Below the pieces are notes generated by a model, which was not told the DNA's origin, did no database searches, and was given only the letters and a program-made list of their open reading frames with translations. This document shows positions 14,159 through 16,666 of a stretch of 64,000 bases of DNA, in pieces. Source of the DNA: a virus (taxonomy: Duplodnaviria > Heunggongvirae > Uroviricota > Caudoviricetes); IMG/VR virus record IMGVR_UViG_2690316068_000001, positions 1-64,000 of that record; one strand, written 5' to 3'. The number at the start of each line of letters is the position of its first letter. Positions within the stretch are counted from its first letter, which is position 1. The position numbers and the translations under genes were made by a program.

Positions 14159-14165
14159 TGAAACC

Positions 14166-14200
14166 TCGTAGAATCTGGTGTGTTAACCGATTCTACGAGT
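14166..14200. terminator. Hairpin (9-bp stem) downstream of AT-rich cassette
   Basis: cgtagaatc…gattctacg inverted repeat. Confidence 0.3.
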
Positions 14201-14312
14201 TGTCATTTGTTACCGGTCAGTCTACACATTTCAGATACTACGTTAAAACAACTCAAGTGCTTCAAGTAGCACATCGTCATCAACACCCAATCCGAAGATG
14301 CGGAGATAAAAT

Positions 14313-15497
14313 TCAAGCCTTAAGAGGCTTTGTGTATGTTCGTGTAATCCAACCAGTAATAAACTCATCCCCTGATTTAACCTGCACGTAAAGCCATTGA
14401 CGATCTTTCTTATCTAAAATAGCAACAATTGTGTTTTTGCCAATGCATTCAATCACTTCACTATTTAAAGAAGGACTGACATGTAATCTTACGTTATCAC
14501 CAGTTATAAACCTAAAACCATTGAGATCTTCCCACTTAATTTCTGTGTTTTCTTTAATTAATTTTTGTTTTGATATTGGTGCATCCTCATATAGGGATAC
14601 AGAATATGATTCTGTCTTGTGTATTTGCGATAAGATTTGTTCTTTTGCATAATCAGCAATAGCGCCAAGCACCACTTCTGTTAAAAGCCACATAATAATA
14701 AACTGAAGCGGGTGAGGGAGCGACTTAAATGAATCAATGAACGTCGAACTGGATTTATTTAATCCTTTGTCTTGAACATCACTTTCGTTGTGAGATGTTT
14801 CAATAGCACCTTCGACATAAGCCTGTGCAATTGATGAAAGACTTTGCTCCATTATTTGATGTAATGAAGCCTTTTGCGCTAGGGTATATTGTTTTAATGA
14901 TTCTTTTATTTCATTGTTTAAATCTATCTTATGACTTACATTTTGTCGCAATTCATTAAGTATTGCTTGCATGTTATTTAAACCAGCTTGCTTATTAAGC
15001 ATCTCGAACTGGTTTCGTAACGGCATAGCAATTTCTGCCTGCTTCCTTAGCATTTGAATGTATTTATTTGCATCATGCGGGGGATAAACCTTGGCCTGTT
15101 TCTGTAGAATTTCAAGAAATTCACGATGCTTGCTATTTATTCTTCTCAAGCTCGTCATGTTCGCAAGCTGTTTTTTAACAGAATCACTAAGTAACGATTG
15201 CAAATTCAATCTTGCTATTTGTTCTTGAGCTAGCCGCCCTATTCTTAACTGTTCTTGCAAGTTTGCCATATGTTCTCTATACGATGGAATGATTGCGTTT
15301 TTTTGCAGTTCTGCCAACTGTCTAACCAAATTATTAGAAGCATATTCTGATTTTAATAAATCACTTGCCGATGTATATCCTGGCATTTTGATTTTACTTA
15401 AATTATCACGCCAGGTAATATTTGAATCTCTATTATAGAGATCGCTTACTGAGCCAAGTGCAAGTTTTTTAATATCCTTCACTTTATTCACCGTCAT
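14313..15497 (-). CDS. Coiled-coil membrane protein with C-terminal SH3b-like domain
   Basis: 394 aa; Q/L-rich heptads, one TM segment (PLQFIIMWLLTEVVLGAIA), C-terminal SH3b-like fold; AT-rich codon usage unlike flanking genes. Confidence 0.55.
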   Translation of the reverse strand: MTVNKVKDIKKLALGSVSDLYNRDSNITWRDNLSKIKMPGYTSASDLLKSEYASNNLVRQLAELQKNAIIPSYREHMANLQEQLRIGRLAQEQIARLNLQSLLSDSVKKQLANMTSLRRINSKHREFLEILQKQAKVYPPHDANKYIQMLRKQAEIAMPLRNQFEMLNKQAGLNNMQAILNELRQNVSHKIDLNNEIKESLKQYTLAQKASLHQIMEQSLSSIAQAYVEGAIETSHNESDVQDKGLNKSSSTFIDSFKSLPHPLQFIIMWLLTEVVLGAIADYAKEQILSQIHKTESYSVSLYEDAPISKQKLIKENTEIKWEDLNGFRFITGDNVRLHVSPSLNSEVIECIGKNTIVAILDKKDRQWLYVQVKSGDEFITGWITRTYTKPLKA

Positions 15498-15990
15498 CTT
15501 GCTTTAAACATCCATCATTTTTAGCTTCCTTGTAAATACTTGAAATTCCATCAAGAGAGAATGATGTAATTCGACGCGATCCGATATATACATCCATGTT
15601 TTTTTCTTTTGTGGCTGACGCTGACTTCCAAAAAGAATACCATTCCCTACGATTTGGAGCAGTGTTTTGCGTACCAATATTAAAGCTATCCGAACCAACA
15701 ATTAAGGTAATTACATCAGCTTTACGAGAAATTGTGTCGCGTGTAGAAAAATCAGCATTCTCTTTCCCTCCACTTACATACAAATTTCTTCCAGCTATAT
15801 GATCTTCGGAACCTTCCCTTGCTCCAGCATCACAAGAAAAGTTAATTGTATAACCATCGTCATTGGTTGCAGAGATTTCTCTCCACCCTTGCTCACCTCC
15901 TACCGTCCAAACGGTAGAACCTGCCATTGCTGATAATGGCAGAAAAGAGGACATTAATAAAAAGCTATACAATGACTTATATAATTTCAT
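15484..15990 (-). CDS. Secreted protein (signal peptide), unknown function
   Basis: 168 aa, N-terminal signal-like MKLYKSLYSFLLMSSFLPLSAMA; AT-rich. Confidence 0.55.
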   Translation of the reverse strand: MKLYKSLYSFLLMSSFLPLSAMAGSTVWTVGGEQGWREISATNDDGYTINFSCDAGAREGSEDHIAGRNLYVSGGKENADFSTRDTISRKADVITLIVGSDSFNIGTQNTAPNRREWYSFWKSASATKEKNMDVYIGSRRITSFSLDGISSIYKEAKNDGCLKQDDGE

Positions 15991-16078
15991 ATTTTTATCC
16001 TTTTTGTTTTAGATATTATAGGCATAGTCCATATTGTTAGATCCACTATGCCCAGAGAATTTAATATTATTCATTAAA

Positions 16079-16570
16079 TTATGGAGCTACACCCGGCCCC
16101 CTGGCTCGTTCTTCAAGCGTACCCTGCACGTTTTGATGGCGCATTCCTGGGGCATTTCTGATTGAGTCAATGCCATTTCTTCCAACATCTTCTTTATTAA
16201 CGGCATTGCTCGCCACCAGCACACCCCAGCTAGGGATAGCAAAATCAGGAGCTGTTTCGCATGCCTTTACCATATAATCGAAAGTGCTTCGATTGATCTC
16301 ATTTGCATCGGGGTTTAATAGGCGAGAATATTGGTATTTAGCATTTGCGTTGGTTGAGACTTTATACAGTTCCTGCTGCACCATCGCTTCAGAAAGTTTA
16401 AGGCGCTTCATATCTGACAGTAACTTCTTGCGCATGGATTCGTCTTCACTGACAGCAAATCCGTAAACGTGCCCAAGGTATTTCGTATAATCGGTACAAA
16501 TCTCCTTTACGCTTGATGCTGCATTAACAGTCCCAGCCATAAATAATAACGGTAGTAATAGTTTTCTCAT
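16079..16570 (-). CDS. Secreted protein with C-terminal segment homologous to an internal segment of the SLT tape-measure protein
   Basis: ORF-track frame 16079-16597; likely start ATG 16568-16570 (MRKLLLPLLFMAGTVNA signal) with GGTGAGG SD. C-terminus …NAPGMRHQNVQGTLEERARG… matches 8618-11992 product …NGRGMRREVVQGTLEERARG…. Confidence 0.6.
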   Translation of the reverse strand: MRKLLLPLLFMAGTVNAASSVKEICTDYTKYLGHVYGFAVSEDESMRKKLLSDMKRLKLSEAMVQQELYKVSTNANAKYQYSRLLNPDANEINRSTFDYMVKACETAPDFAIPSWGVLVASNAVNKEDVGRNGIDSIRNAPGMRHQNVQGTLEERARGPGVAP

Positions 16571-16666
16571 TATAACCTCACCTGCCTTATAACTCATTTA
16601 GGGTACATATTTTCGCCTTTAAAAAAAAGAGGTTATTAGATCCAATTGTGCATTTATTAAACAAAC

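Follow-up and report, generated by a model that had tools for sequence, protein, structure and literature searches.

A variant cassette of predicted envelope proteins in the sim locus of a P1-like phage-plasmid, with a SimA-family tail resembling the tape-measure protein Sit

The stretch of DNA analysed here (positions 1 to 64,000 of the virus record IMGVR_UViG_2690316068_000001; "the window" means this whole 64,000-nucleotide stretch) belongs to a P1-like phage-plasmid (Punavirus). Between pmgC with its late promoter LPsit on one side and the Oc4–c4–icd–ant immunity module on the other, it carries three co-oriented minus-strand genes, in the order wC, wB and wA, which very probably constitute an envelope-directed accessory cassette of the sim locus. 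The cassette is a variant of this known locus and is built from three named but uncharacterised families: a SimA-family protein (wC), a YfjT-family protein (wB) and a protein with a transmembrane (TM) helix and an SH3 domain (wA). P1 serves as a workhorse phage, and its phage-plasmid relatives commonly carry resistance genes. Its classical Sim system excludes superinfecting P1 after adsorption, a block that transfection bypasses; to our knowledge, the mechanism by which the P1 sim locus excludes superinfecting phages has never been worked out.

Results

In P1, the interval from pmgC and LPsit to the C1 operator Oc4 is filled by simC, simB and simA, which places the window cassette in the exact sim slot. 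The synteny of this position holds with P1, P7, Ro157c2 and SJ46. On the left, sit, pmgB, tub and pmgC all lie on the minus strand, pmgC being the first gene of the late tail operon of LPsit, and window positions 13500-14211 align without gaps to P1 positions 1842-2553 (L001; designations of this form denote the loci used for comparison). On the right, the c4 flank (16744..16950) matched RF03163 with 56 bits and RF01695 with 68.4 bits in an Rfam scan, each score exceeding the gathering threshold of its model, and ant1 and kilA follow beyond the C4 RNA. The cassette is transcribed toward pmgC, as in the P1 sim slot. Alignment of the region upstream of simA, which comprises Oc4 and the predicted promoter PsimA, shows near-identity among the window, P1 and Ro157c2, and the string of wC, wB and wA is most likely transcribed from this conserved simA promoter region. 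A weak terminator-like site, a short GC-poor hairpin (AAGCCTCTTAAGGCTT) at window positions 14315-14330 followed by GAATTTTATC, lies over the stop codon of wA, just upstream of LPsit.

Besides slot, orientation and upstream region, the cassette shares with P1 simC-simB-simA a simA homologue as its first gene, exported products with predicted Sec-type signal peptides and a low G+C content (GC). It differs in that SimC and SimB are replaced by the YfjT-family protein and the TM and SH3 protein, and in that its SimA has 163 amino acids (aa) and a Sit-like tail, unlike the 52-aa SimA stub of P1. An earlier reading made from the sequence alone had called open reading frames (ORFs) at 14313-15497, 15484-15990 and 16079-16570, between the tail genes and c4/icd/ant, and had expected a superinfection-exclusion locus there without assigning a mechanism. 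The three ORFs are confirmed, and their position is borne out by the synteny described above and by the C4 RNA matches. The expectation itself holds as far as the P1 simCBA slot, the SimA homologue and the predicted envelope products are concerned, but not for SimC or SimB, of which no homologue was found in the cassette.

Low G+C content and variability of the sim region have previously been described for P1-like phage-plasmids (PMC9603915). In blastn comparisons, positions 14220-16090 of the window (1871 bp) have no DNA counterpart in P1 or Ro157c2. DNA that includes LPsit is conserved up to about 14211-14219, placing the left junction at about 14212-14219, just upstream of that promoter, and on the right side conserved DNA restarts at 16431 when compared with P1 and at 16091 when compared with Ro157c2. 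With 35.6% GC, this segment is the minimum of all intervals of the same size in the 64 kb (mean 47.2%, standard deviation 2.8%), lying about 4.2 standard deviations below the mean. The genes wA (35.0% GC, with 29% at third codon positions, GC3) and wB (37.9% GC, GC3 27%) share this composition, the spacer between wB and wC has 25% GC, and the genes that flank the cassette range from 46.7 to 49.8%. The values for wC (44.5% GC, GC3 41%) include a GC3 equal to that of sit, and we therefore place wC outside the AT-rich block and within the conserved backbone. The marked AT-richness that the sequence-only reading had attributed to all three genes thus stands for wA and wB and not for wC. Its description of the cassette as inserted was imprecise, since the segment replaces other DNA at a locus already known to vary. 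The junctions of 14220-16090 show neither direct nor inverted repeats, and an origin of the segment as a transposon or insertion sequence was rejected for lack of terminal repeats. Judged from these DNA comparisons, the block is a homologous-recombination replacement within the variable locus rather than a transposon-like insertion.

The first gene of the cassette, wC, matches the SimA-family profile phrog_3933 at E 2.4e-113 over profile positions 1-162 of 213, with the C-terminal ~50 residues missing, and the NCBI annotation for the family is 'simA domain protein'. Its start codon (ATG, 16570) is preceded by the Shine-Dalgarno sequence GGTGAGG. By rule-based reading, wC has a predicted signal peptide with a basic n-region, a hydrophobic core and an AxA-type site (MRKLLLPLLFMAGTVNA, predicted cleavage before A), and so does wB (MKLYKSLYSFLLMSSFLPLSAMA, predicted cleavage before G). 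Two cysteines of wC, C25 and C104, are invariant across the SimA family alignment. The protein is 96% identical to residues 1-161 of Ro157c2 gp35, and its first 42 residues are identical to aa 10-51 of P1 SimA at 38 of 42 positions (~90%; BLASTP E 1e-26). Members of the family range from 163 to 246 aa in length. At the 16091 junction wC is 3'-truncated, being 163 aa long where full-length relatives have 213-215 aa, corresponding to a loss of the last ~54 codons. P1 SimA (L007:7495-7653) has only 52 aa, matches the first ~43 residues of the family and then diverges, and it looks like the 5' remnant of an ancestral simA-like gene whose remainder gave way to a simB-simC block. Derivation from a larger SimA family would explain this seemingly meaningless 52-aa ORF. 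In NZ_CP117721.1 (L021:2923-3393), a P1-type SimA stub runs in frame into SimB, the two forming a fused ORF of 156 aa. An assignment of wC to the PTP-like phytases (PF14566) was rejected, as the match reaches 25.2 bits against a cut-off of 27, covers only profile positions 47-132 and is not accompanied by a Cx5R motif, neither C25 nor C104 having R at +6. A sequence-based search of the wC family profile against solved structures gave no credible match.

The tails of SimA-family proteins carry the motif NxPGMR..VQGTLEERARG, which is otherwise found only in the tape-measure protein and transglycosylase Sit. The last 33 residues of wC are 51% identical to motif copy 1 of Sit (BLAST E 2e-7), and the Sit-family PHROG also matches this stretch of the wC tail (E 1.8e-5). 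A six-frame scan of the window found the motif at three places only, namely the wC tail and two copies in Sit. When wC and several SimA relatives were compared by phmmer with 1134 stop-to-stop segments of the window, Sit was the sole non-self match (E 2e-9 to 3e-3), and the wC tail alone matched Sit at E 2e-9. In the SimA family alignment, N139 and R144 are invariant, G142 and Q146 are nearly invariant, and the tails beyond the motif are unrelated. Motif copy 1 lies ~90 residues beyond the SLT domain of Sit (aa 742-847) and is present in the Sit proteins of four P1-type elements from E. coli or Salmonella (P1, P7, Ro157c2 and SJ46) and of one more E. coli locus; of four diverged elements that were checked, three have it. 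The SimA tail can also track the lineage-specific spelling of Sit: AERAYGKGTSTAMGN in P0075 corresponds to AERAYGKGTTTAMGN in the Sit of the diverged-lineage contig L020, and the spelling in the L017 Sit is close, while the SimA of L017 itself shows no such tracking. On these alignments we regard the SimA/Sit motif as a real local homology under constraint; homology alone does not imply function.

Two further observations concern Sit. In a comparison of the window with L007, L008, L009, L010 and L014, motif copy 2 occurs as two alleles, LRNSPGMRKNN in the window, P7 and Ro157c2, and LINARGMRSNN in P1, SJ46 and L014; both of the genomes compared that have a motif-bearing SimA carry the RNSPGMR allele, which is akin to RN[AS]PGMR of SimA, and these are too few cases to judge. 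The SLT module of the window Sit is swapped, with positions 9311-9940 (Sit aa 685-894) being ~35% identical to P1, P7, Ro157c2 and SJ46 and the flanking parts of Sit 90-100% identical. DNA of this variant occurs in 61 PLSDB plasmids and in at least 33 of the 35 that bear the sim cassette described below. A strict coupling of cassette and SLT allele is ruled out by SLT-variant plasmids that carry P1-type simCBA (two were inspected among the 27-28 without the cassette), and we therefore attribute the association to lineage or linkage.

The second gene, wB, whose 3' end overlaps the start of wA by 14 nucleotides, matches phrog_3429 at E 4.2e-70 over 4-166. The family PF27224:YfjT is precomputed for P0076, a cluster 100% identical to wB, and for its locus neighbours; the local copy of Pfam does not include the PF27224 model and gave no Pfam match for wB. 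Identity is 27% with K-12 YfjT (BLASTP E 2e-5) and 28% with Ro157c2 gp34, and no more than 22 representative relatives were recovered when HMMER was run exhaustively. All aligned relatives share C53, and most of them also have the C-terminal C161. The AlphaFold2 (AF2) model has a predicted local distance difference test score (pLDDT) of 85.8 and shows a beta-rich fold with two helices, and a sequence-based search of the family profile against solved structures gave no credible match. Similar to wB, K-12 YfjT, which is encoded in the cryptic prophage CP4-57, has a signal peptide and a comparable size; its neighbour is the lipoprotein YfjS, as opposed to the SimA or SH3 proteins here. Since YfjT itself is uncharacterised, this match provides a family name and no function. 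That wB might be a divergent SimC, SimB or P7 DUF5384 protein was ruled out by hhalign of its family profile, and when wB was considered as a periplasmic inhibitor of lysozyme or lytic transglycosylase (Ivy, MliC/PliC, PliG), no fold similarity to a solved inhibitor was seen.

The third gene product, wA, is a predicted bitopic membrane protein that matches phrog_7086 at E 1.6e-200. An alternative start (GTG 15482, with Shine-Dalgarno sequence GGTGA) would yield the 389-aa form that is annotated in relatives, and no signal peptide was seen by rule-based reading. A hydrophobic segment is located 128-133 residues from the C-terminus in 26 of 26 relatives. In the family alignment, conservation is high in the TM helix and over the final ~110 residues; the first ~255 residues differ among members in length and in the number of repeats. 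The N-domain of wA contains a repeated L-x-K-Q-A motif. The SH3_3 domain (PF08239) is matched in all 26 family members at E<=0.01 (best 2.3e-9), and the SH3 region of wA forms a six-strand beta module in the AF2 model (pLDDT 50-70); wA itself, at 26.0 bits, stays below the gathering score of 27. The features that had been proposed from the letters alone fared differently: the TM segment is upheld (aa 263-281), as are two N-terminal signal peptides, predicted for wB and wC, and the C-terminal SH3b-like domain is supported by the family and falls just below threshold in wA, but coiled-coil heptads are not supported, a crude heptad score being no higher than in shuffled sequences. No enzymatic or effector domain was detected in wA, and a sequence-based search of its C-domain against solved structures gave no credible match.

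The wA family comprises 47 clusters among 5.8 billion proteins, mostly on ~76-100-kb contigs or shorter fragments, from Escherichia, Citrobacter, Salmonella, Pseudocitrobacter and Yersinia. A tblastn search of 50,697 records of deposited phage genomes gave no match, and wA is therefore known only from plasmid and assembly records. The Citrobacter homologues (L011:10001-11362; L012:10001-11446) stand alone at another locus, between genes for a 197-aa protein and an HNH protein and near a 2262-aa helicase/methylase-like gene, and their N-domains contain many tandem repeats of ~13-14 residues of the type IQKQAGFASTFHEQMKA.

All three genes are under purifying selection. The ratio of nonsynonymous to synonymous substitution rates (dN/dS, pairwise Nei-Gojobori) is ~0.1 for wB and 0.1-0.2 for wC; for wA it is 0.3-0.5 overall, 0.3-0.5 in the N-domain and 0.12-0.21 in the SH3 domain. 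In these comparisons the wA N-domain is fast-evolving, and with dN/dS of 0.3-0.5 positive selection on it is not shown.

The same families recur at this locus in different combinations. Ro157c2 has SimA and YfjT, and CP056621 has SimA, a 116-aa multi-TM protein, YfjT and SH3; several E. coli plasmids have the 116-aa protein, YfjT and SH3 without SimA. SimA and YfjT, the latter sometimes as a fragment (92 aa in some relatives), are also present where the P1-like gene order has diverged, namely in Salmonella, in Klebsiella aerogenes and on the unassigned metagenome-run contig L020. The P1 locus consists of the SimA stub, SimB and SimC, P7 and SJ46 carry an outer-membrane lipoprotein and a DUF5384 protein, and Citrobacter phage-plasmids have the SH3 gene alone and in a different place. 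Among the P1/D6-like loci examined, SimA with YfjT forms the core most often seen, and the SH3 gene is an independent add-on. The pair in the window is similar to Ro157c2YLVW gp35-gp34 and to the Salmonella and Klebsiella P1/D6-like pairs in families, order and locus; what sets the window apart is a YfjT allele of low GC that has diverged, the extra SH3 membrane-protein gene and a simA-like gene shorter by ~54 codons. Every alternative cargo seen at the locus is a predicted envelope protein, including SimB and SimC with their signal peptides, the P7 lipoprotein and DUF5384 protein, and the 116-aa multi-TM protein. On our reading, the cassette genes are independent morons in one hot spot and form no obligatory complex.

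The exact cassette of the window (at least 80% coverage) occurs in 35 of ~340 matching PLSDB plasmids, from several host species, and was not found in deposited phage genomes. Like wA, the SimA family is mostly found on ~76-100-kb contigs or shorter fragments, and the neighbourhoods examined for the two families are those of P1/D6-like phage-plasmids.

Several variants contain additional genes. A strongly hydrophobic (multi-TM) protein of 116-117 aa, absent from the window, is encoded directly upstream of the YfjT-family gene in several of them (L004:2562-2912; L014:9077-9427; L017:10768-11121). In CP057476.1 (L005:963-1925), a gene with a DUF4760 domain lies on the opposite strand between pmgC and the SH3 gene, and the hot spot therefore takes further cargo. 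In NZ_CP117721.1 (L021:1-1698), mcr-1.1 and an ISApl1 transposase lie directly beyond icd, the usual place of ant1, and the ImmI antirepressor region of this element is thus disrupted by a colistin-resistance insertion.

Table 1. Features of the sim locus and its flanks, in window coordinates
Feature	Position	Strand	Basis or match
sit	8618-11992	-	
Sit motif copy 2, partial, aa 990-1011 (GIDGLFDKLRNSPGMRKNNV)	8960..9025	-	
Sit motif copy 1, aa 921-957 (...FMNGRGMRREVVQGTLEERARGKGT...), downstream of SLT domain	9122..9232	-	
pmgC, first gene of LPsit late tail operon	13592..14158	-	97.9% aa identity to P1 PmgC
LPsit late promoter	14190..14208	-	assigned by homology; P1 annotation L001 2532-2550
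Low-GC replacement segment with wA and wB	14220..16090	.	blastn breakpoints against P1 and Ro157c2
wA, 394 aa, predicted bitopic membrane protein	14313..15497	-	phrog_7086
wA SH3_3 domain, aa 334-388	14334..14498	-	Pfam PF08239
wA TM helix, aa 263-281	14655..14711	-	KD19 1.83
wB, 168 aa, predicted periplasmic	15484..15990	-	phrog_3429; PF27224
wB predicted signal peptide, aa 1-23	15922-15990	-	
wC, 163 aa, predicted periplasmic	16079..16570	-	phrog_3933
Sit-like motif in wC tail, aa 131-163 (GIDSIRNAPGMRHQNVQGTLEERARGPGVAP)	16082..16180	-	
wC predicted signal peptide, aa 1-17	16520-16570	-	
PsimA, predicted sigma-70 promoter	16635..16661 (+/-1)	-	homology to P1 annotation
C1 operator Oc4 (AATGCTCTAATAAATTT), boundary with ImmI region	16667..16683	+	aligned to annotated P1 and P7 operators
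c4 a1b1 targets (right flank, immunity I)	16744-16796	+	
C4 antisense RNA (right flank, immunity I)	16865-16950	+	

Discussion

For the function of the cassette, its position and the predicted localisation of its products make superinfection exclusion at DNA entry the reading that we favour, although one that we would stop short of calling probable. The cassette would be expressed from the prophage, and its products, to judge by their export and membrane signals, would go to the cell envelope, where they could block DNA entry by related phages from the periplasm and the inner membrane of the lysogen, as P1 sim is annotated to do. The step hit would be the one in which Sit leaves the tail, cuts peptidoglycan and helps the DNA through the periplasm and inner membrane. 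In such a scheme, wA would hold an SH3b peptidoglycan-binding domain in the periplasm by one TM anchor, with its variable domain in the cytoplasm, and wB would be a tightly conserved periplasmic partner. By displaying its own version of the motif that is conserved in the C-terminal part of the incoming Sit, wC might compete for a Sit partner or poison Sit assembly; the shared motif suggests such a decoy step, which we consider rather unlikely. We hold to be just as speculative the broader proposal that SimA-family proteins are periplasmic Sit mimics that titrate a host or phage partner needed for the DNA conduit, that SimA with YfjT, and not SimC, would be the ancestral exclusion module of P1/D6-like phage-plasmids, and that the TM and SH3 protein would be an added layer. 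The P1 simABC genes are dispensable for plaque formation (PMC10695390), as is expected of a function that benefits the prophage.

A number of findings weigh against a role in exclusion and against the decoy step. SimC is the sole P1 sim product annotated as a superimmunity determinant, and no SimC homologue was found in the cassette (best BLASTP E of wA, wB and wC 5.7; hhalign of the wB family profile 0.2% probability), nor was a SimB homologue (best BLASTP E 1.0; hhalign 1.7% probability). Because of this, exclusion is deduced from position and localisation, and since the features of SimC and SimB are missing we do not class the cassette as a strict Sim system. No cassette protein of the window matches a PHROG annotated as superinfection exclusion (E<=1) or a PADLOC defence model; in PADLOC-DB 2.0 there was only Csx1 at E 0.12 for wA and nothing for wB and wC, and an NCBIfam scan gave nothing useful. 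The three genes are no obligatory unit, as wC is part of the backbone shared with Ro157c2 and the SH3 gene occurs without SimA. The AF2 model of wA is poor (mean pLDDT 41, too low for fold searching, with the N-domain helical at low confidence), and the charges that flank its TM helix do not decide the topology; we favour N-in/C-out, given that export of an N-domain of 260 residues lacking a signal peptide is improbable. The fold of wB offers no functional clue, the BFVD fold search having returned one uncharacterised 'putative adhesin'. As to the motif, wC itself is 3'-truncated, a Salmonella SimA (L019) has the motif although the Sit of the same element gave no match to the motif pattern, and several SimA relatives retain just NxPGMRxQ without the longer Sit-like stretch. 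P1 SimA is without the motif, and the motif therefore cannot account for classical Sim.

HK97 gp15 and T4 Sp and Imm are injection-stage superinfection-exclusion proteins. Exclusion by Ltp of the Streptococcus thermophilus phage TP-J34 also takes place at injection, with the tape-measure protein as its target (PMC3952083), and the targets of P22 SieA are the ejection proteins gp16/gp20 (PMC10883804). The mode of working that we propose for the cassette would be similar to that of these prophage-encoded or early envelope proteins, which are proposed or shown to block DNA entry after adsorption and whose specificity is tied to tape-measure or ejection proteins of the incoming phage; no sequence relationship with any of them was detected in the PHROG comparison (E<=1). 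We know of no report that one of these injection-stage systems carries a copy of its target's own motif. Recognition of tape-measure proteins at the membrane has been described for the host defence SNIPE (PMC13190303).

The cassette could instead consist of lysogenic-conversion morons that alter the physiology of the host envelope (stress tolerance, adhesion, colonisation, serum or bile resistance) and play no part in phage exclusion, a reading to which we grant a limited likelihood. The presence of the YfjT family in K-12 cryptic prophage CP4-57 beside the lipoprotein YfjS is consistent with it, and low GC and free gene assortment are typical of morons; the locus, however, has historically been known as sim, members of the wA and SimA families were mostly found on contigs of phage-plasmid size and not spread through chromosomes, and the Sit-like motif suggests a role directed at phages. 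Quite unlikely, in our view, is a role in the lytic cycle, with wA as an SH3b auxiliary of lysis or tail penetration and wC as a Sit-related factor in assembly or processing. It would fit the location of the genes directly upstream of the late tail operon and in its orientation, the motif that wC shares with the virion protein Sit, a weak match of the wA SH3 part to the endolysin-amidase PHROG phrog_1794 (E 4e-4), and the proposal of standalone SH3 proteins as lysis auxiliaries in T1-like coliphages (PMC13164509). Since LPsit is downstream of the cassette, however, late tail transcription is independent of it, and P1 makes plaques without simABC, as mentioned above. Moreover, P1, P7 and SJ46 have unrelated genes at the locus despite near-identical tail genes, lysis genes are located elsewhere, and the predicted Sec signal peptide of wC is unexpected for a cytoplasmic assembly factor.

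We see a similarly small chance for defence or abortive infection against unrelated phages, in which wA would be a membrane sensor whose periplasmic SH3 domain detects cell-wall damage and whose cytoplasmic repeat domain serves as effector or scaffold. The bitopic design, joining a conserved periplasmic module to a fast-evolving, repeat-rich cytoplasmic domain, would suit such a sensor, as would the movement of wA as a self-standing gene, with its Citrobacter copy beside the HNH-domain gene and near the helicase/methylase-like gene, and the DUF4760 cargo of CP057476.1 in the same hot spot. On the other side stand the missing PADLOC match, the lack of a detectable enzymatic or effector domain in wA, and dN/dS values of its N-domain that do not show positive selection. 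That the segment is decaying or functionless DNA hitch-hiking in a recombination hot spot is hardly credible. The truncation of wC, the P1 SimA stub and the YfjT fragments of some relatives point in that direction, but all three ORFs are intact, the cassette is kept in plasmids of several host species, and the dN/dS values of wB, wC and the wA SH3 domain contradict the idea.

Conclusions

As far as the searched literature shows, three elements of this analysis are new: P1 SimA as a remnant, the recurrent SimA and YfjT core, and the motif that SimA shares with Sit. The y-ome protein YfjT gains a first genomic context. If the cassette had no exclusion phenotype, the locus would be one more moron hot spot. 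The classical simC and simB genes are just one of several alternative cargos at this locus, and SimA relatives that carry a piece of the tape-measure protein offer a concrete hypothesis for how a block at the injection stage may work.

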